This document shows, piece by piece, positions 5,789-61,015 of a stretch of 64,000 nucleotides of DNA. Numbering within the stretch: position 1 is the stretch's first letter; each line of letters opens with the position of its first letter. The notes under the pieces are model-generated. The model ran no database searches. It was given only the letters and a program-made list of their open reading frames with translations, and was not told the origin of the DNA. The translations under genes were made by a program, and so were the position numbers. The DNA is from a phage, in sequence record PZ179880.1, one strand, 5' to 3'.

Positions 5789-5848
5789 ATTAATTTCCTC
5801 TAAATTATTTTCTACTCCAAGGCCACATGAATACACGCGGCCATTAAA

Positions 5849-6064
5849 TTAATCGTCGCAGTCGACGCTCAATTCCCAAAACTCTTCTACGGTATAAGTT
5901 TCAGTATCATTTTCAATACAGAAACGTTCATTACTGTTATTTGCTAAAGTAGCATTAACTGTCATTTTTTCGCTAGTGCTCTTAAGAGGTGAAATACGAA
6001 TTAACTGATCACCATTATCTAAACAGAAAATTTCACCAACTTTTACATCTTTAAAAATTTTCAT
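5849..6064 (-). CDS. Hypothetical protein (71 aa)
   Basis: Minus-strand ORF downstream of ndd. Confidence 0.5.
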   Translation of the reverse strand: MKIFKDVKVGEIFCLDNGDQLIRISPLKSTSEKMTVNATLANNSNERFCIENDTETYTVEEFWELSVDCDD

Positions 6065-6072
6065 AATTCACC

Positions 6073-6180
6073 TCAGGGAGTATAAAATCCAAATGCAGTT
6101 GTTGACCATCCCATCCAATATGGGATATTTGCGCCAATGTAAAATACAAGAATATAAAACCAAATGCTTAGTAAATTCAT
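6073..6180 (-). CDS. Small hydrophobic peptide (35 aa)
   Basis: Hand-translated MNLLSIWFYILVFYIGANIPYWMGW...; start overlaps upstream stop. Confidence 0.3.
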   Translation of the reverse strand: MNLLSIWFYILVFYIGANIPYWMGWSTTAFGFYTP

Positions 6181-6377
6181 TATTTTACACCATTCCAAAT
6201 TGTTTCAACCACAGATTTCAAACCATTTTGGTGAATATCCATTCCGACAACTGCCATCAAATAGATTCCAACCACAACTGAAACCAAGGCGAAAATCAGC
6301 ATGAAAATGAATAAAGCTGGAAAAATATTATCGAAAAACCATTCCATAAATGTAAAAGCACTGCGTTTACGCTTCAT
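6180..6377 (-). CDS. Small membrane protein (65 aa from MKRKRSAF...)
   Basis: Track ORF trimmed to ATG with GAGGAAAA SD; long hydrophobic segment. Confidence 0.45.
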   Translation of the reverse strand: MKRKRSAFTFMEWFFDNIFPALFIFMLIFALVSVVVGIYLMAVVGMDIHQNGLKSVVETIWNGVK

Positions 6378-6384
6378 ATTTTCC

Positions 6385-6498
6385 TCACATAAATCCAAAG
6401 TAAGCGTTTAATACATCAATCATTAAAACAATTGGGAATATACTCAAAACTACTAGTATTATAACTACATTCCATATAGCTTTAACAATCTTTTTCAT
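6385..6498 (-). CDS. Small membrane protein (37 aa, MKKIVKAIWNVVIILVVLSIF...)
   Basis: ATG at 6498 with GGAGG SD, just downstream of the early promoter at 6527-6555; track ORF upstream part lies before the TSS. Confidence 0.4.
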   Translation of the reverse strand: MKKIVKAIWNVVIILVVLSIFPIVLMIDVLNAYFGFM

Positions 6499-6526
6499 TT
6501 TCTGTTCCTCCGTAGTTGATAGGGTA

Positions 6527-6555
6527 ATAATACCACAGAGGAACAGTCTTGTAAA
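6527..6555 (-). promoter_or_regulatory. T4-type early promoter (-35 TTTACA, -10 TATTAT, TGn)
   Basis: Minus-strand GTTTACA..N17..TGGTATTAT; part of 63-bp exact repeat also at 59245-59307. Confidence 0.65.
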
Positions 6556-6563
6556 CAACTTTT

Positions 6564-6662
6564 TTAAAAATATTCGTAATAAATGTGAATGCCAATCACT
6601 ACTGCCGAAACTTGCGCAACCCACCATGCACAAGCAATAAGTACAGAATTCAAAATTTTCAT
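6564..6662 (-). CDS. Small hydrophobic peptide (32 aa)
   Basis: Hand-translated MKILNSVLIACAWWVAQVSAVVIG...; GAGG SD. Confidence 0.3.
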   Translation of the reverse strand: MKILNSVLIACAWWVAQVSAVVIGIHIYYEYF

Positions 6663-6745
6663 AATAACCTCATCACAAAAGTAAATGTTAAACAAATTAA
6701 TGGAATACTAATTAACCAAATAAAACACCACCATAATGAACTCAT
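6659..6745 (-). CDS. Small hydrophobic peptide (28 aa)
   Basis: Hand-translated MSSLWWCFIWLISIPLICLTF...; ATGA overlaps at both ends. Confidence 0.3.
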   Translation of the reverse strand: MSSLWWCFIWLISIPLICLTFTFVMRLL

Positions 6746-7014
6746 AGTTCAATCTCAGCGATTTTCATTTCATTACTATTAATAGCCGCTTTAAGACTAT
6801 CTGAAAGAATTACATTCCAGTGGTCATTCATATGACCATTAACCAAGCGTGTAATTTCTTCGGGAGTTGAAAAATAAGGCGTATCAGACTCCCAATGCGA
6901 TAGTCCCAAGCGAGTATAAATCATACCTTCATCATCGCTAGAATATTCAACTGACACAAACTCATCAGTTATTTTATGTTTAGCGTAATAAAATTTAAAT
7001 TTCATTTTACTCAA
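6742..7014 (-). CDS. Hypothetical protein (90 aa)
   Basis: Minus-strand ORF, start overlaps upstream stop. Confidence 0.5.
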   Translation of the reverse strand: MSKMKFKFYYAKHKITDEFVSVEYSSDDEGMIYTRLGLSHWESDTPYFSTPEEITRLVNGHMNDHWNVILSDSLKAAINSNEMKIAEIEL

Positions 7015-7217
7015 TAATCCGCTAAAAGATCGACGATTGCATCACGAAGACACTTATTCGCAATACGCTTAAGAGCAATTTCAGTTTCTGGAGCATTTTG
7101 AATAATCATTGAATTCAATTCAGCCTCAGCAAACTGAAGTTCTTTAACTAATTCAGCTTTATATTTTCCTTGCCCTTTCTTAGCTTTTGCTCGTTTTAAT
7201 TCAGCTGTAGTAAACAT
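7011..7217 (-). CDS. Hypothetical protein (68 aa from MFTTAELKRAKAKKGQ...)
   Basis: Track ORF trimmed to ATG at 7217 (GGAGA SD), which lies downstream of the promoter at 7252-7280. Confidence 0.45.
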   Translation of the reverse strand: MFTTAELKRAKAKKGQGKYKAELVKELQFAEAELNSMIIQNAPETEIALKRIANKCLRDAIVDLLADY

Positions 7218-7251
7218 TTTATTCTCCAAATCCGTATCAGTTGATAGTTGT

Positions 7252-7280
7252 ATAGTACCACAGTCCTTGTGGTATGTAAA
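7252..7280 (-). promoter_or_regulatory. T4-type early promoter (-35 TTTACA, -10 TACTAT, TGn, UP element)
   Basis: Minus-strand GTTTACA..N17..TGGTACTAT downstream of denB stop. Confidence 0.65.
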
Positions 7281-7297
7281 CTGTTTTGTGAAAATTT

Positions 7298-7855
7298 TTA
7301 AATGGAAAGATACCATCCGTTGTAGTTGCTTTTTCTTACAACCTTACGAAGGTCTTCTCTATCACCGATGAACTTCGGAGTGTACTGGATGACACCTGGA
7401 TGAATTTCTTTAGTGTTGAATATAATTATACAGTCAGCGACTTGATGATTTAGAATGGGCCCTAGATTTATTCCAGAACCGTATGGATACTCTCCGCTGC
7501 ATCCGGTTGTTACCGAAATCCAACGTGAGTCAGTTTGATGTGTTTTGACTTCTACACGAAGCCCGCAGTATTTTGGATGCGCCAGTACATCCCACGCATA
7601 TGTATACGGGTCATTAACATCCTCTTGGCCTTTGTTAACGTACCCGCTTAGCCAATCTGCTACAAAAAATTCTGCGTACACAGCGATACGACATCTTTCA
7701 ATAACTTCTGCTTTATCCTGATTAGGATTTTGTTTTAAAGAGTATCTTGCTGTATCAGCAATTTTGACCTTCATTTCACTAGTCAAATCATTGTTCGATA
7801 GGGTAAATGTCGGAATCTGAAATAGTCTCTGTAAACCCGGATTCGTTTTCTGCAT
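7298..7855 (-). CDS. denB: Endonuclease IV DenB (dC-specific ssDNA endonuclease)
   Basis: 185 aa MQKTNPGLQRLFQIPTFTLSNNDL... matches T4 DenB in sequence and length (memory). Confidence 0.9.
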   Translation of the reverse strand: MQKTNPGLQRLFQIPTFTLSNNDLTSEMKVKIADTARYSLKQNPNQDKAEVIERCRIAVYAEFFVADWLSGYVNKGQEDVNDPYTYAWDVLAHPKYCGLRVEVKTHQTDSRWISVTTGCSGEYPYGSGINLGPILNHQVADCIIIFNTKEIHPGVIQYTPKFIGDREDLRKVVRKSNYNGWYLSI

Positions 7856-8117: not shown

Positions 8118-8136
8118 AATTTCCCTTAAAACAAAA

Positions 8137-8148
8137 GGGCCGAAGCCC
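8137..8148 (-). terminator. Intercistronic GC stem-loop with UUCG tetraloop (terminator / RNA-stability element)
   Basis: plus gggccgaagccc = minus RNA GGGC-UUCG-GCCC, followed by U-rich run. Confidence 0.55.
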
Positions 8149-8153
8149 TTATT

Positions 8154-8348
8154 TTATTTGAATTGTGCAATTCTTTTCTCTAAACAATCTGCGTAAGATT
8201 TCATTGAGATAAATTGTGAAAGCAACAGTTCTTGTTCAACTTCATTAATCGTTAGAAACTTTGTGCTTTCTAAAAATTTGCTCAGTGCATTAATTTTGAG
8301 CATTAATTGATCGTATTCTTCTTTTACTCGTGCTTGATAACCTAACAT
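8154..8348 (-). CDS. Hypothetical protein (64 aa)
   Basis: Minus-strand ORF flanked by two UUCG hairpins. Confidence 0.45.
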   Translation of the reverse strand: MLGYQARVKEEYDQLMLKINALSKFLESTKFLTINEVEQELLLSQFISMKSYADCLEKRIAQFK

Positions 8349-8364
8349 AATTTTCCTTAGTTAA

Positions 8365-8376
8365 GGGCCGAAGCCC
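8365..8376 (-). terminator. Intercistronic UUCG-tetraloop stem-loop just after rIIB stop
   Basis: plus gggccgaagccc. Confidence 0.5.
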
Positions 8377-9315
8377 TTATTTAAATTGTTCAGTAACGTC
8401 TTCAACTACTTCGTATTGACAGGTACGCATTTTAGCATCGTTATAATCAATCGGAATTGATACTACATCACGCGGATGTACTTTAACTTTTACAACTCGA
8501 CTGGTTGAACTGCCAAAGTGACGAATATAAGATTTAGAACACACATGCAGACCACGAGAACAAGTTTGTGTATCATCGTCATTCACACGAGTACGTGGCA
8601 TTTTAACTACTTTACCAGGACTGTTATCAAAGGTATTTGAGTGACAGTCAAAGTAATTGCTGCGAACTACTTTCCAAGCATAGAAGTAACCGTCTTCTGT
8701 AATTTCAATATCGTTTGCTACCAAGAAATCAAAGAGTCGAGATACCGCTTTTTGGCTCGGGTTTTCCAGCAGATTTTCCAAGAACGGAAAATAAAATTCA
8801 AAGTTTTCACCTTTTTCCATCGAATCGAGAATACGATCAACTAAACCAGACCGCAATTCAATATTTTGATAGAACAGGCTTCCACCTTCAATTCGAACAT
8901 CACCGGAAATATATTTTTCAACTGCGCGACGAACATTAATTTTTTGTGCCGCTTCTTCCAATTTATCTGCAACAAGCAGATTAAGAATTTCCTGGAAGTT
9001 TGAATGAGTATTAGGAGTTGCGTTGTAAGTTACGCCATCAACAGTAATTGAAATGAATTTTTTAGATGCATTCCAAATAATGTCAGATTTAGCAACTGAA
9101 GCAATAGCTACATCACTCTTAACTTCAACTGTAATGTCACCGCTAATGGTAACTTTGGAACGCTCAGCTTCTTCAGCATTTTTCAAAACACGACGGATTG
9201 TGTCAACCGATACACCTTGCCAATCAGCCAATTCCTGTTGGGTATAATTACCACTTGAATACAGTTTAACAATTTCAGCTTGTTCGTTTTTGGTCAGGCA
9301 TTTAATATTGTACAT
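8377..9315 (-). CDS. rIIB: rIIB protein
   Basis: 312 aa, same length as T4 rIIB; directly downstream of rIIA as in T4. Confidence 0.95.
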   Translation of the reverse strand: MYNIKCLTKNEQAEIVKLYSSGNYTQQELADWQGVSVDTIRRVLKNAEEAERSKVTISGDITVEVKSDVAIASVAKSDIIWNASKKFISITVDGVTYNATPNTHSNFQEILNLLVADKLEEAAQKINVRRAVEKYISGDVRIEGGSLFYQNIELRSGLVDRILDSMEKGENFEFYFPFLENLLENPSQKAVSRLFDFLVANDIEITEDGYFYAWKVVRSNYFDCHSNTFDNSPGKVVKMPRTRVNDDDTQTCSRGLHVCSKSYIRHFGSSTSRVVKVKVHPRDVVSIPIDYNDAKMRTCQYEVVEDVTEQFK

Positions 9316-14891: not shown

Positions 14892-15009
14892 TACAATTTC
14901 CTCATTAATTGAACATTGGAGTGATGCGTTTCAGAAGAGTAGTAGCACCTTTGGCAAATTTTCCATTTTATTCTCCAAGTTGTTTTCTGTATCAGTAGTT
15001 GATATTGAT

Positions 15010-15038
15010 ATAGTACCATAATCAACTACTGATGTATA
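15010..15038 (-). promoter_or_regulatory. Putative T4-type early promoter (weak -35 TATACA, -10 TACTAT, TGn, UP element)
   Basis: Shares the gatattgatatagtacca and ttttatgaaaaaatttt blocks with other early promoters. Confidence 0.45.
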
Positions 15039-15063
15039 TAGTTTTATGAAAAAATTTTAAACT

Positions 15064-15552
15064 TTATGCATAGAGAGCTTTGCTATAGTGTTTAATCCAG
15101 CTTTCAGGAATGACTTTGTATGTTCCTAAAAATACCACATTATACAGCTTAACACCGTCTTCTACCCACTGATCGGTAATGTATGCGCACATAGCACGAG
15201 TATAAACAGCCGCACCATCATCTTTGATAAATTTAAATTCACAAGGAGCAATGAACTTAATAGCCTGACCGAGTTTCCACTTAAAGTCTACACCTACGTG
15301 CGAAGTATCAATCGTTTCAATTCCTTTAGCAGGAACAGCTTTCAAAAACGCAGACTCAAGAAATTTCGCGCGAACATAGCCAAACTGGGGTTTAGACTTT
15401 CCATCTTTAGGAATGATACGCACTTTTACTTCAGAATCTTCATCTTTAACACCATGTTTAAGCTGAATGCTTACAATTTCAACCAATTTTCCTGCTGCTT
15501 TAGAACGGGATTTATCAGATACACGAGCAATTTCACCAATATTAATAATCAT
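15064..15552 (-). CDS. motB: MotB (DNA-binding early protein)
   Basis: 162 aa MIINIGEIARVSDKSRSKAAGKLVEIV...; sequence and length match T4 MotB (memory). Confidence 0.9.
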   Translation of the reverse strand: MIINIGEIARVSDKSRSKAAGKLVEIVSIQLKHGVKDEDSEVKVRIIPKDGKSKPQFGYVRAKFLESAFLKAVPAKGIETIDTSHVGVDFKWKLGQAIKFIAPCEFKFIKDDGAAVYTRAMCAYITDQWVEDGVKLYNVVFLGTYKVIPESWIKHYSKALYA

Positions 15553-15596
15553 AGTTATCTCTCACTTGTTAAAAAGATTTTATACTCCACGGGACC

Positions 15597-15625
15597 ATTA
15601 TACTCTGGTCCCAAGAGTTTGTAAA
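15597..15625 (-). promoter_or_regulatory. T4-type early promoter upstream of motB (-35 TTTACA, -10 TATAAT)
   Basis: Minus-strand GTTTACA..N17..TATAAT; -10 sits in loop of hairpin gggacc..ggtccc. Confidence 0.6.
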
Positions 15626-15628
15626 CTA

Positions 15629-16169: not shown

Positions 16170-16670
16170 TTATCTCATTTCAATAAAATCTACGAGTTCA
16201 GCATGTGATTTGCGGAACATTACTTGGTGCCCGCCAATGATAACTTCATCTTCAGGAACTTCATATACAGCGAGATAAAATCCTTTAGAAGATAATTCTT
16301 CGCGTTCTTCTCGCGTGAACCATCTCATCATATCATATTCGCTAGCGAAAGCAAAATGATAAAGAGCTATAAACCATCCTGGAATATGATATTCTACTCC
16401 AACATAATCTTTCTTGAACTTAGTATTAATTACTATATTAGCGTTTTTAACTAATAGTTTATCTTCGTGTGGTAAAGGAATTCTTTTATTATTATCGCTA
16501 TGATGCATAAAATTAGGTCTATCATAACCTACGTGTAATAACCACTCTTCGCTCCATGAATCTATTATACTCCTGTATGGTGTTATTTGAACACAAAGAT
16601 TTCGACGCATTGTTATAGCATCTTCATAATCAAGAATGCTAAACGATGATTCAACACGATAAATTTTCAT
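16170..16670 (-). CDS. Hypothetical protein (166 aa from MKIYRVESSF...)
   Basis: Track ORF trimmed to ATG at 16670, downstream of promoter at 16698-16726. Confidence 0.5.
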   Translation of the reverse strand: MKIYRVESSFSILDYEDAITMRRNLCVQITPYRSIIDSWSEEWLLHVGYDRPNFMHHSDNNKRIPLPHEDKLLVKNANIVINTKFKKDYVGVEYHIPGWFIALYHFAFASEYDMMRWFTREEREELSSKGFYLAVYEVPEDEVIIGGHQVMFRKSHAELVDFIEMR

Positions 16671-16697
16671 TTTATTATCCTCAGTAGCTATGATGTT

Positions 16698-16726
16698 ATA
16701 ATACCACAACTAACCGAGGAAGTAAA
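16698..16726 (-). promoter_or_regulatory. T4-type early promoter (-35 TTTACT, -10 TATTAT, TGn)
   Basis: Minus-strand GTTTACT..N17..TGGTATTAT just after dexA stop. Confidence 0.6.
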
Positions 16727-16733
16727 CAACTTT

Positions 16734-21003: not shown

Positions 21004-21623
21004 TCAACTACCTCAATATCATACACTTTAAATGTTCCAAATGAATCGTGTAATTTTTCTTTTGAAATAAAAGTTATTTTATACTTTCCAATTGGAATCA
21101 TCCATTCTTGTTCACGTACAATCATCATTAAGTTATCAGTACGTTCTGAATCTAGCCCATCAGTATCTTCATATGTGTACTTGAACTCAGTATTAGGAGA
21201 AGAAAGTATAATATCGCTGATATGGTCAGAATAATTAAAAGCTTTATCAGTTTTTAAGCGAAGTATTATTTTAGTAAAATATTCAGCATAAGAAAAAGAA
21301 CATGCTGTGAGTAAACTAGTAGTAAATGAATCTACCCTGTTCGTTGAAAACACTTCTCCAACTTGTAAATCTTTAATAAGTTCTTTTGTCGATTTTGATA
21401 TACCACGATATAACTGATAAGGCGATTTAGTTAAATGCTTTTTAATGATTTTATTCAATTGCCGATGAAGAGCTTCATTCTTTTTGGCTTCCATACATTG
21501 CCAAAGAATTGACTGTTCAAAGTCAGTAAATTTTTCACAGACCTTTTTATACATATCATATTGAAAATCAACGCTTTCAGCTTTTATAGATAACTGTTCA
21601 ACATCTGCAAGATTAATAATCAT
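21000..21623 (-). CDS. modB: ADP-ribosyltransferase ModB
   Basis: 207 aa from MIINLADVE... with GGAGG SD; track ORF was 4 codons longer. Confidence 0.85.
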   Translation of the reverse strand: MIINLADVEQLSIKAESVDFQYDMYKKVCEKFTDFEQSILWQCMEAKKNEALHRQLNKIIKKHLTKSPYQLYRGISKSTKELIKDLQVGEVFSTNRVDSFTTSLLTACSFSYAEYFTKIILRLKTDKAFNYSDHISDIILSSPNTEFKYTYEDTDGLDSERTDNLMMIVREQEWMIPIGKYKITFISKEKLHDSFGTFKVYDIEVVE

Positions 21624-21649
21624 GATAGCCTCCATATACTTCAGAAGCT

Positions 21650-21678
21650 ATCATATCATTGTTAGGAAGGAAAGTAAA
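21650..21678 (-). promoter_or_regulatory. T4-type early promoter upstream of modB (-35 TTTACT, -10 TATGAT, TGn)
   Basis: Minus-strand GTTTACT..N17..TGATATGAT. Confidence 0.55.
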
Positions 21679-21690
21679 CAACTTTTTGAA

Positions 21691-25070: not shown

Positions 25071-26410
<1,340 letters not shown>

Positions 26411-26435
26411 TATATCATCCTCAGCAATTTATTTT

Positions 26436-26464
26436 ATAATACCATAACAAGCTGAGAAAGTAAA
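26436..26464 (-). promoter_or_regulatory. T4-type early promoter upstream of the 186-aa ORF (-35 TTTACT, -10 TATTAT, TGn)
   Basis: Minus-strand GTTTACT..N17..TGGTATTAT. Confidence 0.6.
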
Positions 26465-26509
26465 CAAATTTATGAAATTTGTGATAAATATTAATTTAAA
26501 GGAGGACAT

Positions 26510-39387: not shown

Positions 39388-39422
39388 AATTTCCTCATTC
39401 AAGTTTTAGTGTAAATTATAAA

Positions 39423-39434
39423 GGGCCGAAGCCC
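39423..39434 (-). terminator. Intercistronic UUCG-tetraloop stem-loop between 45 and 44
   Basis: plus gggccgaagccc. Confidence 0.5.
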
Positions 39435-39438
39435 TTTA

Positions 39439-40125
39439 TTAAAAATCGTGGGTAGAATCAGCTTCAAGAGCTACCACATAATTCGCGTGTTCACCTTCAA
39501 ATTTAGCAGCACCTTGTTTACCTTTTGCCCAGAGCAGAAGTTTATAATTTCCTGGTTGCATTTTCATATTTGCCATATTGATAATGAAATTAAATGTATT
39601 TTCACCATCATAATCACCAAGAGTCAAAGAATATTTAACACGGGTCAAAGCAGAATCTTCTACTTTATTAAAACCGTTAATTACGATTTTACCTTCTTTT
39701 ACTGTGATAGCAATTGTATCAATCTGCAGACCGCGAGATACACGCAACAGCTGTTGAAGGTCTTCAGCTTTAATTTCAGTAACAACAGATGCTACCGGGA
39801 ATGGAATTGGTTTATTAGGAGCAACTACTGTACTCGGATCGGCTGCTGGCCAAAAAATTGTTGAGCGGGCATCAGCAATTTTAATATTTCCATCTTCTGA
39901 CTGGGAAATTTCTGCATCATCATTAACTAGAGACAGAATACCGAGAAAACCGTTCAAATCGTAAATCGCTACATCAAAATCAATAGTGTCAGAAATATTT
40001 GCTTCTGCATAAGTTGTACCATTAACTGCGCGAGTCATAATAAATTGACCAGATTTAAGCATAATACCGGAGTTAATAGTAGCGAAATTTTTAAGCAGAG
40101 CAGTAGTATCTTTAGACAGTTTCAT
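39439..40125 (-). CDS. 45: Sliding clamp gp45
   Basis: 228 aa MKLSKDTTALLKNFATINSGIMLKSGQFIM... matches T4 gp45 (memory). Confidence 0.95.
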   Translation of the reverse strand: MKLSKDTTALLKNFATINSGIMLKSGQFIMTRAVNGTTYAEANISDTIDFDVAIYDLNGFLGILSLVNDDAEISQSEDGNIKIADARSTIFWPAADPSTVVAPNKPIPFPVASVVTEIKAEDLQQLLRVSRGLQIDTIAITVKEGKIVINGFNKVEDSALTRVKYSLTLGDYDGENTFNFIINMANMKMQPGNYKLLLWAKGKQGAAKFEGEHANYVVALEADSTHDF

Positions 40126-44106: not shown

Positions 44107-44132
44107 TATATCAAACTCCGTATAAAGCTAAA

Positions 44133-44144
44133 GGGCCGAAGCCC
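44133..44144 (-). terminator. Intercistronic UUCG-tetraloop stem-loop after alpha-gt
   Basis: plus gggccgaagccc, 2 nt past alpha-gt stop. Confidence 0.5.
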
Positions 44145-44145
44145 T

Positions 44146-45348
44146 TTATTTTGTAATAATGTCAAACTGTTCTTTAAAGCAGAAGCTTGAATCTTGATGC
44201 TGATACAAAAATTCATATGCTTTTTCTCGCTCACGGTCATAAAGAGCTCGGTCAGATGACAGTTCTTTAATACGTTCAAACGTTGATTCCATATCATTTT
44301 CATCAAACCAAATGATACCGCTATCATGCGAGGTCAAAGGAGTATTATCAACACGGAATTTTAAATTTTCGCCAGTAGATTTCCAAAATACCGGAATTGT
44401 TCCACATGCACCAAGCTCGAGATGAGTATATTCTAAAGAACGTTGTAGATATTTTTTGTCCAACTTACTCAGCTGATAACCAAATCCGGATTTACTCATG
44501 CGTTCAAGCATTTCGCTATTTACATAACGGTCAAGAATTTGCGTTGGCAAATTAGGAGCAATTTTAATTTGGTCTACTTGATGAAGACGATAATACTCGT
44601 ATGGAATTCCTTTTTCTTTAATAGGAATGAACGCTGGAGAACGTTCCAGACCTTCCATAATAGTACTTAGTCCTGCAGGTTTAAGATGTTTTTCATGAAA
44701 ATCAAACATCTGATAAAAACCTTTCCATGTAGTCGTACGACCAATCCAACGGTTGATATTCATGTTAATTTCAGAAACATCTTTCCAGTAGGTTGATCTA
44801 ACCTTCGCAATATCCATAGGAGGCTGAAAGTTATATACTGTCGGCGCTTCTTCAATATCATCAAACAAAGAAACTGTTTCAGGATACCATTCTTTCATCA
44901 GAACTTTATTAAAATCGCCATTATCAGAATGACTAAAAATAACATCAGCTCGACGAACAGTTTCTTCTAATCCCAAATTTCGGCGCAAAGAAAGAGAAGA
45001 ATGGTCATGTTGATAAACTACAACACGAACCGAAGGTTTAATGTTATCAATAATTTTTTTATAGTTATTAATAGTGTCTTCTTCAACTGAAGTAGCAGGA
45101 ACTGAATTGATAATTAGAATATCACAATCATTTACCAGCTTAAGTGTTTTATCGTATTCTTTTGCCAATAAAACCGGAATTGAAAATGATTTATAATCAT
45201 GCGCACAATTACGAGTAAATGATTTATCTTTAGCATAAACCAAAGTTACTTCATGACCATTTTTAATAAACCAATCACGCTGCTCAAGAGAAAATTTAGT
45301 TACACCGCAACCTTCAAGACCTCGAGCCATAAAAATACATACTTTCAT
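44146..45348 (-). CDS. a-gt: DNA alpha-glucosyltransferase
   Basis: 400 aa; MKVCIFMARGLEGCGVTKFSLEQRDWFIKNGHEV... near-identical to T4 alpha-gt (memory). Confidence 0.95.
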   Translation of the reverse strand: MKVCIFMARGLEGCGVTKFSLEQRDWFIKNGHEVTLVYAKDKSFTRNCAHDYKSFSIPVLLAKEYDKTLKLVNDCDILIINSVPATSVEEDTINNYKKIIDNIKPSVRVVVYQHDHSSLSLRRNLGLEETVRRADVIFSHSDNGDFNKVLMKEWYPETVSLFDDIEEAPTVYNFQPPMDIAKVRSTYWKDVSEINMNINRWIGRTTTWKGFYQMFDFHEKHLKPAGLSTIMEGLERSPAFIPIKEKGIPYEYYRLHQVDQIKIAPNLPTQILDRYVNSEMLERMSKSGFGYQLSKLDKKYLQRSLEYTHLELGACGTIPVFWKSTGENLKFRVDNTPLTSHDSGIIWFDENDMESTFERIKELSSDRALYDREREKAYEFLYQHQDSSFCFKEQFDIITK

Positions 45349-47731: not shown

Positions 47732-47771
47732 ACATTATCCTCAATTACGTTAAAATTTTATTATCCAAAAA

Positions 47772-47783
47772 GGGCCGAAGCCC
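47772..47783 (-). terminator. Intercistronic UUCG-tetraloop stem-loop followed by U-run
   Basis: plus gggccgaagccc preceded by ccaaaaa. Confidence 0.55.
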
Positions 47784-47984
47784 TTAGCTAAACTTTTTGG
47801 CACCCTTCCAGCCTTCGTACATCATTGCGACTGACAATGACAAAGCTCCTTCACATGCTGCATACTTATTATTCCAGAACCAATTTAGAAAAACTTCATC
47901 CTCAATACCATTGTGTTTCATGTTCTGGAAAAATTTGGCGCGTTCTTCAGCAATTCGCTGCGATAATTTAGATTCAGGATTCAT
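47784..47984 (-). CDS. Hypothetical protein (66 aa)
   Basis: Minus-strand ORF. Confidence 0.4.
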   Translation of the reverse strand: MNPESKLSQRIAEERAKFFQNMKHNGIEDEVFLNWFWNNKYAACEGALSLSVAMMYEGWKGAKKFS

Positions 47985-52145: not shown

Positions 52146-52187
52146 AATAAAACCCTTACCTTAAATAGATAAGGGTATTTATTATTT

Positions 52188-52364
52188 TTAAGTATTGTAA
52201 AACATTCGATGCAATCGTTTATACTGTCGAATCATCTTTTTAGTAGGACGAGAATAGGTTCCTACGCAAGTGGTCATATGAGGGTCCGTAGAATGTCCTT
52301 TAATAAAAAGTTTCCAAACCTTACCGCCATTTAACTTTTCAGTATAAACCAATTCGGTTTTCAT
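52188..52364 (-). CDS. Small ORF (58 aa) whose C-terminus is a paralog of the Pin C-terminus
   Basis: Ends KKMIRQYKRLHRMFYNT vs Pin QKIRQYKRLHQMFYNT; lies within a 45-50 bp direct repeat. Confidence 0.4.
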   Translation of the reverse strand: MKTELVYTEKLNGGKVWKLFIKGHSTDPHMTTCVGTYSRPTKKMIRQYKRLHRMFYNT

Positions 52365-52400
52365 TAAAATGTCCTGTCAGAAAAAGAATTTTGAGTTTTT

Positions 52401-52886
52401 TCAAGTATTGTAAAACATTTGATGCAATCGCTTATATTGCCGAATCTTTTGGTCAGAAAAAGAAATTTGAGTTTCAAGCCATTCAATGTACTCTGCGGCA
52501 GCTTGCATCAGGTTACCTTCATAGCCATCGTTATTTTCTTGCGCAGCTAATTTAGCTAATGCGTATGAAATACGTTCACCTTGAAAAGCGGCTTTAGGCT
52601 TCTGAACATCTTGGCTAGTTCTCTCTACAACTTCTTCAATTTCGCCATTTTCAACGGATTCAGTATTCCACAAACACCAGTATGTAATTGGCTTATCATA
52701 GATGTTAATAATCTTTCCGTCGGAAAGTTCAATTTCAATAATTCCAGTATCAGGTTCTATATCATCTTCGCATTCTTTTGCAAGTTCACGAACTTTAAAG
52801 ACAATACCTGCACTAAGTTCAGGCCAGTAATTACACAGCCCTTTATCAGCACGATTAATTCTAAACCACTTATCTACTGTAATCAT
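52401..52886 (-). CDS. pin: Pin (inhibitor of host Lon protease)
   Basis: 161 aa from MITVDKWFRINRADKGLCNYWPEL...; matches T4 Pin (memory); GGAG SD. Confidence 0.8.
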   Translation of the reverse strand: MITVDKWFRINRADKGLCNYWPELSAGIVFKVRELAKECEDDIEPDTGIIEIELSDGKIINIYDKPITYWCLWNTESVENGEIEEVVERTSQDVQKPKAAFQGERISYALAKLAAQENNDGYEGNLMQAAAEYIEWLETQISFSDQKIRQYKRLHQMFYNT

Positions 52887-53658: not shown

Positions 53659-53901
53659 TTATTCCTTAATTCCTAGTACTTGTTTAAAAGTCTCGTCGTA
53701 ATCAAGACTTTGGCCCGTTTGTTCTTTATGTTTGTATATAATATCACTTACTTCTGATAGCATATTTTTATATGAACGAGTTAAAGCAGATTTAAGCACG
53801 CTGTATCTATCAGGAAATTTACCATGTTCATTATAATAAGCTATTGCTAATTCACGGACTGCCTTTTCAGCAGCCTCCATATATTCTTTACGCTTGGTCA
53901 T
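53659..53901 (-). CDS. Hypothetical protein (80 aa)
   Basis: Minus-strand ORF. Confidence 0.5.
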
Positions 53902-53903
53902 TT

Positions 53904-54293
53904 TTAATCCAAAATATTATTAGGCATTGGTTGAACACTCACAAGTTCTTTAAAGAACTCAGTAGAGTCAGGCAATTTAACCATTTCCGGAGCATGCTTA
54001 CTGAATTTATGTTTACATTGACGGCATTTATATTCAAGCTCTGGTTTACGCCAGTTAATCAATTGAACTTGTTCAGTACCGCATTCAGGGCAATTAGGAA
54101 CGTTTTTAGAAGCTCTTTCACGTCGTTCAACCATAGCCATAATAGCATCCCATGCTGGAGGTTTAAAATCTAAATCGTCGCAGCCGTGAATCTTTCCACG
54201 CATTTCCATATCATCTTCCTCACCAGCCATAATAATTTTAATTAAACTGGAATTACTTGAAGCTGCAATGTCTTCTAATAAACGCTTTTTCAT
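53904..54293 (-). CDS. Zinc-ribbon protein (129 aa)
   Basis: CPECG...CRQCKHK pair of CxxC motifs. Confidence 0.5.
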
Positions 54294-58265: not shown

Positions 58266-58666
58266 TTTTCAATTTTACTAAATATACAGAATAAGATGGA
58301 ACAGACTATATAAGCACCACACACAGATTGAACTAATACCATTCCAAAGAACCAAACAATATTATCAAACAATGTCTGTTTTACGTCGAAAGGACGTAAA
58401 CTTACAGTAATATTATCACCTTTTTCTATTGAAGAATACATCTCTGGGGAAATATATTCACTAAATCTATAACCGTCTTTGAGTTCATATACAGCAATAA
58501 ACGATAAACTAGACCCCTTTCCTTGAGTTCCTGTAAAGGTATTAACTACAGTAACATCATAATCTTTATAATGCATATAATCATTAATAGCATAATAACC
58601 ATATGCAATTATTATACATAAACAACATATCAATAAATTCAATCTTTTAATTATCAACTGTTTCAT
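58262..58666 (-). CDS. Membrane protein (134 aa) with N- and C-terminal hydrophobic segments
   Basis: LLICCLCIIIAYGYYAI and IVWFFGMVLVQSVCGAYIVCSILFCIF. Confidence 0.5.
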   Translation of the reverse strand: MKQLIIKRLNLLICCLCIIIAYGYYAINDYMHYKDYDVTVVNTFTGTQGKGSSLSFIAVYELKDGYRFSEYISPEMYSSIEKGDNITVSLRPFDVKQTLFDNIVWFFGMVLVQSVCGAYIVCSILFCIFSKIEN

Positions 58667-58721
58667 AATAATCTCAATTAAAAGGGCTTAGAACCATTAT
58701 ACCATCCTTGGTATAAAGCGG

Positions 58722-59249
58722 TTATGCGAGTACCGTCTTTAACCGTTCTTCAAACTTCCGAAGAGTATTTTGGCGTTCAGCTCTTTGCTTTTTGTAAGTT
58801 TCAATACGCTCTGAAATGAGAGTGTATCGTTCATTTACTGATTCTTTCATAAAATCAGGAATTTCACGAGAAGCTTTAATCTCATCAAATTTATCAATAA
58901 CAGCTTGCTCTTCAGCAATTAAGTTATCATACATCAAAATATCTTTCTTGATGAACTCAATATCTTCTTGAGTTACACGAGATAATTTAGATGCTTTATC
59001 CTTTTTGTACTGTTCATTAGTATCACGAGACCAGTGTAATGTACGATTTTTATTCGTATTCTTGTAAATTTCTACAATACCAATCTCATCGATAATAACG
59101 ATCCAATTCCAACGGGATTTGTAAATTTGTCCTCCATCAACCGTGATTTCACCTCCGATTGAGATGTCATTAAAGAACTTGCTTTGTGCTTCAGATTTAA
59201 ATTTACCATCGTTATAATTTACTAAGTTGAAAATATCTTTAGCGTTCAT
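58722..59249 (-). CDS. Hypothetical protein (175 aa)
   Basis: ATG and GGAGG SD lie inside the 63-bp promoter repeat. Confidence 0.55.
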   Translation of the reverse strand: MNAKDIFNLVNYNDGKFKSEAQSKFFNDISIGGEITVDGGQIYKSRWNWIVIIDEIGIVEIYKNTNKNRTLHWSRDTNEQYKKDKASKLSRVTQEDIEFIKKDILMYDNLIAEEQAVIDKFDEIKASREIPDFMKESVNERYTLISERIETYKKQRAERQNTLRKFEERLKTVLA

Positions 59250-59277
59250 TTTCTGTTCCTCCGTAGTTGATAGGGTA

Positions 59278-59306
59278 ATAATACCACAGAGGAACAGTCT
59301 TGTAAA
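59278..59306 (-). promoter_or_regulatory. T4-type early promoter (-35 TTTACA, -10 TATTAT, TGn); exact copy of the one at 6527-6555
   Basis: 63-bp perfect repeat 59245-59307 = 6494-6556. Confidence 0.65.
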
Positions 59307-59309
59307 CCA

Positions 59310-59624
59310 CTAAAAGAAACTTCTTTCACAATTTTTTCCACTGAACCATGCACTTACCGCTTTCTTGGTCTCAGGAGCAGTGTTATCCATAAACCATTCA
59401 AAGGCAGCCTTTTTGTGATTCTGGAGGGCTTCTCGGGCTTTAATCTGCTCACGGTCTATTAACACTAACATATGAGCCTTTCTTGTCACCATGGGCTTCT
59501 TATGATTTTTTGAATACTCCCAGTCATTTGTCCATCGCATTGTCGTTGCGAACTTAAATACTGCTTCTTTAATTTTAGTTTCGTAAATTTCACGAGCCTT
59601 TGAGTATAACATCATTACCTCCAT
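59310..59624 (-). CDS. Hypothetical protein (104 aa)
   Basis: Minus-strand ORF. Confidence 0.5.
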   Translation of the reverse strand: MEVMMLYSKAREIYETKIKEAVFKFATTMRWTNDWEYSKNHKKPMVTRKAHMLVLIDREQIKAREALQNHKKAAFEWFMDNTAPETKKAVSAWFSGKNCERSFF

Positions 59625-59713
59625 TCACCAGTTTAATTCTAGTTATCTTTTTAATGGCAGTCCATATAATCTATTTCTGAACTGCCTTTTTGTCATAGAA
59701 GTCCTCTTATGAA

Positions 59714-60682
59714 TTATTTCAGAAGAGTAACCTCAGCAATTTCTTCCCAACCGTTTTTGTCGGTCATAATAAAGTCAGCAAGATAAAGAGCAGTACGCAG
59801 TGAAACATTGCGTAAACGATTAACATTAACTTTCATCCATGATAATGCTTTATAAGTTTCTTCATCAGAAAGACCGCGCTTTTGCATCATGTCAGTTGAA
59901 AGAATAACATCTTCAACCCTGACCATAATTTCTTCATTAGTGTGAACACCCAAATCCAAATAAACCGAGCGGGACACTAATGCTTGTAAATGTGGAGCAA
60001 GTTTAGTACCACGGTCTAATTCGCGGTCAATGTCAACGTTTGTGATAAAAACAATCGTTCCTTTAAATTCAAACTCACGCTCAATGCCTTTTTCTTCTAA
60101 GTAAGAAGATGCGGTGCTCCAGCAGACTTTACGGGTCTCTCCAGTGTCCAGAGCAGCTTTCAGAAGATTAAGAATGTCCATATCAGAGAAAACATCCACA
60201 TCATCAATCAAAAGGACAGAATTCTCTTCACGATTATTCCAAAGCTGCTCATAAAGACCAATACCAGAGATTTTACCATTAATGCTTTTATATTCAATGT
60301 ATCCAATATCATTTGCTTTATTTAAAGCTTTATCTAAAGAATACGTTTTACCAATACCTGCTGCGCCAGAGATAATTAATGAACGAATATTTCCATTAAT
60401 AATACCATTCGTCATCATTCCCATAACATTAAATCTTTTATTAATGCGGGTTTTCATATCTTCATACGATTCTTTAATTTCTTCAACTTTTACACCATCA
60501 TATGAAATATCTGATTTGTAAACCCAAACACCGCGACGTTTACCGTCAATTTCAACAAAAACTTTACCATCTCCTTGTGCATCTACCGGAGCATTATCTG
60601 GGAACCATTCGCCTAAGAGCTCAAAAGTTCCAGAGATTTCTTTACCGAAGTAGATACCCTTATTGATAGTTACAGTTTTCAT
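59714..60682 (-). CDS. P-loop NTPase (AAA-like ATPase), 322 aa
   Basis: Walker A GAAGIGKT, Walker B VLLIDDVD; start set at MKTVTINK with GGAGA SD. Confidence 0.65.
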   Translation of the reverse strand: MKTVTINKGIYFGKEISGTFELLGEWFPDNAPVDAQGDGKVFVEIDGKRRGVWVYKSDISYDGVKVEEIKESYEDMKTRINKRFNVMGMMTNGIINGNIRSLIISGAAGIGKTYSLDKALNKANDIGYIEYKSINGKISGIGLYEQLWNNREENSVLLIDDVDVFSDMDILNLLKAALDTGETRKVCWSTASSYLEEKGIEREFEFKGTIVFITNVDIDRELDRGTKLAPHLQALVSRSVYLDLGVHTNEEIMVRVEDVILSTDMMQKRGLSDEETYKALSWMKVNVNRLRNVSLRTALYLADFIMTDKNGWEEIAEVTLLK

Positions 60683-60718
60683 TTTATTCTCCAATTTTAC
60701 ATTTGTTTTGATAGGGTA

Positions 60719-60747
60719 ATAGTATCACACTACTACCCTGCTGTAAA
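60719..60747 (-). promoter_or_regulatory. T4-type early promoter upstream of the ATPase gene (-35 TTTACA, -10 TACTAT, TGn)
   Basis: Minus-strand GTTTACA..N17..TGATACTAT. Confidence 0.6.
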
Positions 60748-60751
60748 CAAT

Positions 60752-61015
60752 TTATTTTAATGTTTGCCAAATTTTTACTGCTTCGCGACGAGATACTTCT
60801 ACGGCGCCAAGTTCTATAGCTTTTTGGCGTCGCCGAGCGTGTAAGTCATAATGTTTAATGCGTTTATCTTGAAACCAAGAACGTTTCATTCCTATTGCTT
60901 CTGCCATTTCATGAAGCTCTTCAATATCTCCATCAGTGAACATATGACAATTTTTAGTTGGATGACCGCGAAGTTTCCATCCATGATTCATTAAAACATC
61001 TACGTAAACTGTCAT
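60752..61015 (-). CDS. Hypothetical protein (87 aa), possibly DUF4031-like
   Basis: MTVYVDVLMNHGWKLRGHP...HYDL pattern; family assignment from memory, low certainty. Confidence 0.45.
   Translation of the reverse strand: MTVYVDVLMNHGWKLRGHPTKNCHMFTDGDIEELHEMAEAIGMKRSWFQDKRIKHYDLHARRRQKAIELGAVEVSRREAVKIWQTLK

Follow-up and report, generated by a model that had tools for sequence, protein, structure and literature searches.

We have found that each copy of the 63-bp perfect repeat in the DNA of phage PZ179880.1 is an ordinary early promoter cassette of the T4 type. The copies lie at two sites which apparently have carried this cassette across the genus Tequatrovirus for long, and they have most probably become identical by the copying of a patch of about 8 bp from one site to the other. 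In the best explanation that we can offer, paralogous early cassettes exchange short patches by ectopic conversion, leave descendants only through non-crossover events, and may each act as a translational gate; taken as a whole, we consider this explanation quite likely. It draws on the sequence anatomy, the positional orthology, the allele distribution, the absence of crossover junctions and the predicted thermodynamics, from which we infer the mechanism and the direction of the conversion. Throughout the text, the window means the whole stretch of 64 kb (64,000 nucleotides) that was analysed, and the copies that head the homologues of ndd.4 and nrdC.8 are called A and B, at sites A and B, respectively.

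Two copies of a T4-type early promoter cassette

We have compared the two copies by exact-match search, and they agree at 63 of 63 positions, both as plus-strand matches and with no mismatch; their starts are 52,751 bp apart. No third copy of the 63-mer exists in the window at up to 3 mismatches, and 100 shuffles give an expectation of 0 matches. The repeat is also the longest exact direct repeat of the window. The runners-up, of 30, 26 and 22 nt, belong to terminator hairpins or to the core regions of other early promoters, and shuffling yields repeats of 15–20 nt. Exact matches between other pairs of early promoters in the window do not exceed 30 nt. A separate 63-nt direct repeat with 83% identity is found at 52171-52233 and 52384-52446, that is, 213 nt apart.

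The genes at both sites are on the minus strand, on which the repeat reads GTTTACAAGACTGTTCCTCTGTGGTATTATTACCCTATCAACTACGGAGGAACAGAAAATGAA and has the layout GTTTAC-AAGACTGTTCCTCT-GTGG-TATTAT-TACCCTATCAACTAC-GGAGG-AACAGAAA-ATG-AA. At both sites the consensus scan has returned TTTACA-17-TATTAT with an upstream TG, and the leader consists of 22 nt, followed by GGAGG and ATG (Table 1). The identity between A and B extends to the first two bases of codon 2 at one end and stops just past the -35 GTTTAC at the other, where GTAAAC is followed by AACTTTTTT in copy A and by CACTAAAAG in copy B. Directly upstream of the -35 element and outside the repeat, the sequence is AAAAAAGTT in copy A and CTTTTAGTG in copy B, as read in a check for an A/T-rich UP-like tract. 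The stop codon of the upstream ORF lies 7 nt (A) or 2 nt (B) beyond GTTTAC. The first-pass annotation of this DNA had described a perfect 63-bp repeat that carries -35, spacer, -10, leader, GGAGG and ATG in front of two unrelated ORFs, and had proposed a search of the full sequence for further copies. The search, as given above, bears out the repeat and adds no copy to it, the consensus scan agrees with the anatomy at both sites, and the two ORFs indeed belong to different families, phrog_3098 and phrog_2274.

Table 1 Positions of the cassettes, their parts and the genes that they head, in the coordinates of the window
Feature	Copy A	Copy B	Strand	Basis or context
Cassette copy A (early promoter, leader, SD, ATG; heads ndd.4 homologue)	6494-6556		-	Nearly fills the ndd.5/ndd.4 gap 6499-6563; orthologous to T4 166765-166814
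Cassette copy B (heads nrdC.8 homologue)		59245-59307	-	Fills the nrdC.9/nrdC.8 gap 59250-59309; orthologous to T4 53886-53945
-35 element GTTTACA	6550-6556	59301-59307	-	Consensus scan, 17-nt spacer
-10 hexamer TATTAT after TGG (extended -10)	6527-6532	59278-59283	-	Consensus scan
Predicted +1	~6520	~59271	-	Placed by spacing only
Allele patch, type 1 TATTATTACCC here vs type 2 TACTATACAAC, 5 positions	6523-6530	59274-59281	-	Sequence comparison
Predicted hairpin 5' arm CUGUUCCUCUGUGGU, in promoter spacer, read-through RNA only	6532-6546	59283-59297	-	RNA folding
Predicted hairpin 3' arm ACUACGGAGGAACAG with SD GGAGG	6502-6516 (SD 6507-6511)	59253-59267 (SD 59258-59262)	-	RNA folding
ndd.4 homologue, MKKIVKAIW..., 37-aa predicted membrane peptide, phrog_3098	6385-6498 (ATG 6496-6498)		-	
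nrdC.8 homologue, MNAKDIFN..., 175 aa, phrog_2274		58722-59249 (ATG 59247-59249)	-	

An extended consensus of T4 early promoters was reportedly given by Liebig and Rüger in 1989. The cassette is an exact match to GTTTAC(N14)gtggTAttaT, which is the T4 early consensus in the GenBank annotation of ASO78A (crediting Miller et al. 2003); that record labels its homologous A site as 'T4 early promoter GTTTAC(N14)gtggTAttaT'. In addition to this consensus, the copies have in common with T4 early promoters the 17-nt spacer, the extended -10 and the conserved leader box ATCAACTAC, as well as a minus-strand position in an early gene region that is orthologous to the regions upstream of T4 ndd.4 and nrdC.8. 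In nothing essential do they differ from this class, and the one unusual trait is the full identity, all the way from -35 to ATG, of two members separated by 52.7 kb. Having the -35, spacer and extended -10 of the class at an orthologous position, the element is assigned to the already known T4 early promoters, and each copy is read as a sigma-70-dependent early promoter, with a transcription start predicted from spacing, that is fused to a leader, SD and start codon.

The 1.5-kb regions around copies A and B match 509 and 699 phage records, with best identities of 98.3% and 100%, respectively, and the source of the window is, judged by its sequence, a T4-like phage (Tequatrovirus). The window is mosaic in relation to database phages. 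That is, its nrdC.8 region (58500-60000) is 100% identical to ECO07P4 and ECO07P5, and its ndd.4 region (5800-7300) finds its best identity, 98.3%, in a different phage, REP4. With 126-nt queries that include site-specific flanks, 498 records match site A and 505 match site B. In the annotated T4 reference, homologous cassettes lie in the ndd.5/ndd.4 and nrdC.9/nrdC.8 gaps; the gene orders nrdC.7-8-9 and ndd.2a-4-5 are unchanged, and the A and B cassettes of T4 and its relatives are ~86–90% identical between sites. Overall, the two cassettes should be old paralogues that are present at both sites across the genus, i.e., in nearly all T4-like phages. The promoter itself should not have moved, and we regard it as an ordinary conserved regulatory cassette at two orthologous sites.

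Proposed allele exchange and the origin of the identity

We have read both sites base by base in 19 genomes and have sorted the remaining ~480 by BLAST identity bands. Scans of IMG/VR with site-specific anchors gave 5 and 6 loci only, and the comparison rests mainly on GenBank phage records. Counted without gaps over the 63 positions, copies A and B differ at 9 positions in T4, at 8 in T2 and KAW1E185, at 7 in RB51, ECO07P4 and one IMG/VR contig, and at 6 in RB3, CT01 and SF2-1, which makes nine genomes with 6–9 differences. An ungapped count is not applicable to G29, REP4 and another IMG/VR contig, where one copy carries a 1-nt indel. The differences number 3 in each of ZN18 and DCP2 and 1 in VIPECOOM01, and there are none in the window and sb4, in which both copies are type 1, nor in GRNsp7, in which both are type 2. 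The Shigella phage sb4 (PQ666542.1, 54250-54950) is the only database phage known to us that shares the A = B state of the window. Its record has a 123-nt CDS annotated where the 528-nt nrdC.8 is expected, and the gene may be disrupted there.

What separates the two types is 5 substitutions clustered within an 8-bp block over the -10/discriminator, which reads TATTATTACCC (or TACTATTACCC) in type 1 and TACTATACAAC in type 2. The usual state is type 1 at site A and type 2 at site B. Records with at least 99% identity to the window are common at site A (113 of 498) and rare at site B (9 of 505 over 126 nt), the nine being ZN18 (two records), ECO07P4, ECO07P5, DCP2, VIPECOOM01-03 and sb4. Within the cassette, copy B of the window differs from type-2 B copies only at 59274-59281, plus 59253 in SF2-1, and the B flanks show 16–26 differing sites per 750 nt between the window and type-2 genomes. 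In the tree of the B flank, type 1 at site B is carried by six genomes; five of them group in a single clade that is nested among type-2 genomes, and the sixth, VIPECOOM01, is placed elsewhere. Type 2 at site A was seen in GRNsp7, ECO07P4 and one IMG/VR contig, which represent at least two flank backgrounds in the tree; in ECO07P4 the alleles are swapped between the sites, with a mosaic at site A. The type-2 core is also present in the window at four or more further early promoters, so that several donors come into question for type 2 at site A.

Two further variants have been noted beside these types. The promoter of the nrdC.10 homologue (60708-60760, minus strand) is a third promoter with a type-1 discriminator (TACTATTACCCTATCAA), and it has a 12-bp hairpin formed by the spacer with the -10/discriminator. 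A third B-site allele occurs in two IMG/VR contigs, L008 (~6500-6580, minus orientation) and L010 (208-276). It consists of an unrelated spacer and discriminator (AGGTCTATGG...TATTATAGACC) and has a hairpin of its own, with 11 bp, that extends across the -10; the neighbouring genes are unchanged.

A clustered multi-base block that is found at either site, on different backgrounds and with almost no intermediates argues for templated transfer. In the lineage of the window, the nrdC.8 cassette would have received its -10/discriminator patch from the ndd.4 allele through a short heteroduplex or a template switch that involved the two cassettes, that is, by a non-reciprocal ectopic gene conversion from A to B. 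The event may have been primed by the identical 27 nt and 26 nt that flank the patch and are also the two hairpin arms described below. The reverse replacement would account for GRNsp7 with type 2 at both sites, and only non-crossover events would have left descendants, crossovers being lethal. Both the direction and the number of conversion events are suggested by the allele frequency together with a poorly resolved tree of the 340-nt flank. Earlier authors have already proposed that early promoter cassettes of the T4 type recombine with each other, at the ndd.4/.5 locus among others (PMC4122927; PMC2839356). Phage PST was considered as a source on the published ndd.4/.5 exchange and was set aside, as its cassette before ndd.4 is intact and adds nothing on cassette mobility.

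Conversion has to be weighed against other origins of the identity. The copies might owe their likeness to shared ancestry and to strong purifying or convergent selection on an optimal promoter-leader, with no ectopic exchange at all and with drift in the other phages. The extended consensus is indeed common to T4 early promoters, and the stems and the SD are invariant across sites. However, such selection hardly explains why intermediates are almost lacking for a block that differs by 5 substitutions within 8 bp, nor why both block types occur at both sites on different flank backgrounds, and type 1 at site B is limited to the nine of 505 records and nested among type-2 genomes; we hold this origin to be unlikely. 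Somewhat less likely still is the recent transplantation that the first-pass annotation had read from the repeat, i.e., the new insertion of a cassette before one of the genes, be it through illegitimate recombination or through a PeSL mini-circle that integrated there. A perfect identity over 63 bp that ends exactly at ATG and at -35 would suit it, and PeSL-mediated cassette exchange has been proposed for the ndd.4/.5 locus (PMC4122927). The comparison with related phages nevertheless finds the cassette at the same sites largely throughout the T-even phages. T4 and ~500 Tequatrovirus records carry a homologous cassette in both gaps between the same flanking genes and in unchanged gene order, and copy B of the window departs from the ordinary B allele at just 5 clustered positions. 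Transplantation is largely refuted by these observations and was an overstatement. Recent is a fitting word for the patch of 5 substitutions within 8 bp at site B, but not for the whole cassette. Least probable of all, to the point that we give it almost no weight, is an artefact of assembly or consensus, in which one promoter copy was polished with the reads of the other. Mis-mapped reads can homogenise short repeats, yet the state with type 1 at both sites recurs in the independently sequenced sb4, and the same B allele is present in ZN18, ECO07P4, ECO07P5, DCP2 and VIPECOOM01-03, whose A sites differ.

The identical copies could also matter in another way, as an active substrate where crossing-over regularly gives 52.7-kb deletions, circles and duplications of biological weight. 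The interval between them encodes RIIA, the topoisomerase II large subunit, Dda, primase, the replicative helicase, UvsX, DNA polymerase, the gp46 nuclease subunit, alpha-glucosyltransferase and NrdD. Because polymerase, helicase, primase and other replication genes lie in this interval, its deletion should be lethal and the product unable to replicate alone. Headful packaging in T4 takes up ~102–103% of the genome length, so a 52.7-kb duplication would not be packageable as a complete genome. We have searched for the deletion and the duplication/circle junctions with chimeric queries, and no record spans either of them, as 0 of 506 and 0 of 616 matching records reach 80% coverage. It is true that the copies are direct repeats, that T4 recombination can use homology of less than ~50 bp (PMC2839356), and that PeSL-flanked segments form circles, detected by inverse PCR in about 1 in 10^5 virions (PMC2839356). 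Against the absence of either junction and the essential replication genes between the copies, however, we think it very unlikely that they serve as an active substrate. The earlier description of the repeat as a substrate for deletion or duplication of the intervening 52.7 kb is formally correct for direct repeats, but no viable outcome follows from it. Only non-crossover outcomes are heritable, in line with the data, and the risk of large-scale rearrangement is unrealised. Gene conversion of the patch is the reading that we retain.

A predicted hairpin that pairs the promoter spacer with the SD

In RNA that reads through the cassette, a 15-bp hairpin is predicted, with the promoter spacer and the SD-bearing leader as its complementary arms. 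Its loop holds the -10 and the predicted +1, and all five substitutions of the patch fall in this loop; the conserved stems are the homology that flanks the patch. The predicted MFE is -23.4 kcal/mol for copy A (z -4.35) and -30.2 kcal/mol for copy B (z -6.37), and none of 200 shuffles is as stable. In copy B, an outer helix is predicted to cover the AUG as well. RNA that starts at the predicted +1 is unstructured, with an MFE of 0. By partition function, the probability that the SD is unpaired is 0.00 in the read-through RNA and 0.53–0.83 in the RNA from its own start, and the window, site A of T4 and site A of GRNsp7 behave alike. Read-through RNA is to be expected, since a scan of the window finds no terminator-like site between the cassettes and the next upstream promoters (7280 and 60747).

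We have compared the pairing among 23 distinct cassette sequences, in which 96.5% of the cells pair. Four pairs vary, and they change only from C-G to U-G, which fits selection on the minus-strand RNA. Compensatory double changes are found in 0 of 15 pairs across the 23 sequences, with no excess over column shuffles. As evolutionary evidence, the support that this gives to the helix is weak. The third B-site allele of L008 and L010 shows no SD switch, the probability of an unpaired SD being 0.17 vs 0.23, and the idea that it is an independent solution to SD sequestration is unsupported by the partition function.

The hairpin is not a general trait of early promoters, and we have rejected this idea: of ~20 early promoters in the window, a clear SD switch is predicted only for this cassette and for the promoter at 26465. 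The latter (26410-26465, minus strand) has a probability of unpaired SD of 0.01 in read-through RNA and 0.86 from its own start. For the promoter at 16727 (16670-16727, minus strand), a 17-bp hairpin with z -5.7 is predicted, and the SD is paired in both RNAs. These two, together with 15552-15626 and 21623-21679 on the same strand, are T4-type early promoters in which the spacer or the -10 is complementary to the downstream SD/leader; the genes downstream of the four promoters encode phrog_1106, phrog_8706, a MotB-like protein and a ModA/B-like ADP-ribosyltransferase. In addition, a 13-nt perfect inverted repeat (ATCAGTAGTTGAT / ATCAACTACTGAT) at 14985-15058 flanks a TACTAT hexamer that resembles a -10, with a degenerate -35; this may represent an early promoter cassette that has decayed or is atypical.

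Based on the folding, it is plausible that the cassette acts as a translational gate. In RNA that comes from upstream promoters, the spacer would pair with the SD and hide it. In RNA from the promoter of the cassette itself the 5' arm would be absent, and the SD would be free and then open to RegB cleavage at GGAG. A wider proposal would be that early cassettes co-evolve by ectopic short-patch conversion over tens of kb, with the hairpin arms as anchors and with the hairpin tying translation to the own early promoter, and that at least one or two others share this design (-35 at 26465, possibly 16727). We put this forward tentatively, with our doubts somewhat stronger than our belief.

Relation to known elements and meaning for T4-like phages

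The cassette resembles PeSLs (Arbiol et al. 2010, PMC2839356; Comeau et al. 2014, PMC4122927), which likewise are composites of early promoter, SD and ATG, lie in hyperplastic regions beside small variable ORFs, and are proposed sites of homologous exchange; ndd.4/.5 is a published example. The two cassettes sit in the ndd.1-ndd.6 and nrdC.1-nrdC.11 clusters, whose content varies between phages. Unlike PeSLs, they have no terminator stem-loop just upstream, the nearest terminator-like sites on the minus strand being 7761, 8150 and 61277. The stem-loop predicted here instead extends across the -10 and is formed by the spacer and the SD, and the proposed exchange would be that of a patch over 52.7 kb without crossover, rather than the excision or insertion of ORFs between neighbouring PeSLs. 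We have not filed the cassette as a canonical PeSL, because the defining upstream terminator stem-loop is absent. By analogy, it does appear to act in a PeSL-like manner, as a homology patch for exchange. As for terminators in the window, the hairpin AAGGGCCGAAGCCCTT is present at 8135-8160, 8363-8388, 39421-39446, 44131-44156 and 47770-47795; read on the minus strand, it folds around a UUCG tetraloop and a T-run comes next, and it fits the T4 intrinsic terminator family.

The T4 genes e, soc, 49 and I-TevI have RBS-sequestering hairpins with an internal promoter, from which a proximal RNA without the inhibitory 5' arm is made (PMC3014915). The predicted geometry here is the same, as the SD is in the helix, the 5' arm is upstream of the proximal start site, and the long transcripts are predicted to be untranslatable. 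The difference is in the timing. In those genes the promoter is a late one and the hairpin blocks early translation, whereas here the promoter is of the early sigma-70 type, and the predicted gate would limit translation to the period in which the early promoter is active.

RegB targets consist of GGAG with an A-rich tail, and the leader here carries GGAGGAACAGA. It fits the 11-nt consensus GGAGRAYARAA only partly, however, and the site would be double-stranded in the hairpin form, RegB being inhibited by RNA structure. In T4, the GGAG of nrdC.8 is cleaved moderately by RegB in vivo (Durand et al. 2006, PMC1702504), which is indirect evidence for early expression of the leader and for an SD that is single-stranded at least in part.

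The cassette itself is of an already known kind. What we consider worth following is the pattern of conversion and the anti-SD hairpin embedded in the promoter, and their interest is modest. The conversion pattern gives a base-resolution view of how regulatory modules are exchanged in T4-like phages, where patches of ~8 bp appear to be copied and whole promoters stay in place. Such copying between paralogous cassettes seems to have run in both directions in different lineages, and it can be set beside the PeSL model, in which modules are shuffled, as a complement. The result also calls for caution, as perfect short repeats are not proof of recent transposition or of an impending large rearrangement. 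If the hairpin between spacer and SD is functional, it would offer a simple way to tell those small early ORFs whose translation requires that they be promoter-proximal. It would then, if true, be an early-promoter counterpart of the late-promoter gates of e, soc, 49 and I-TevI.
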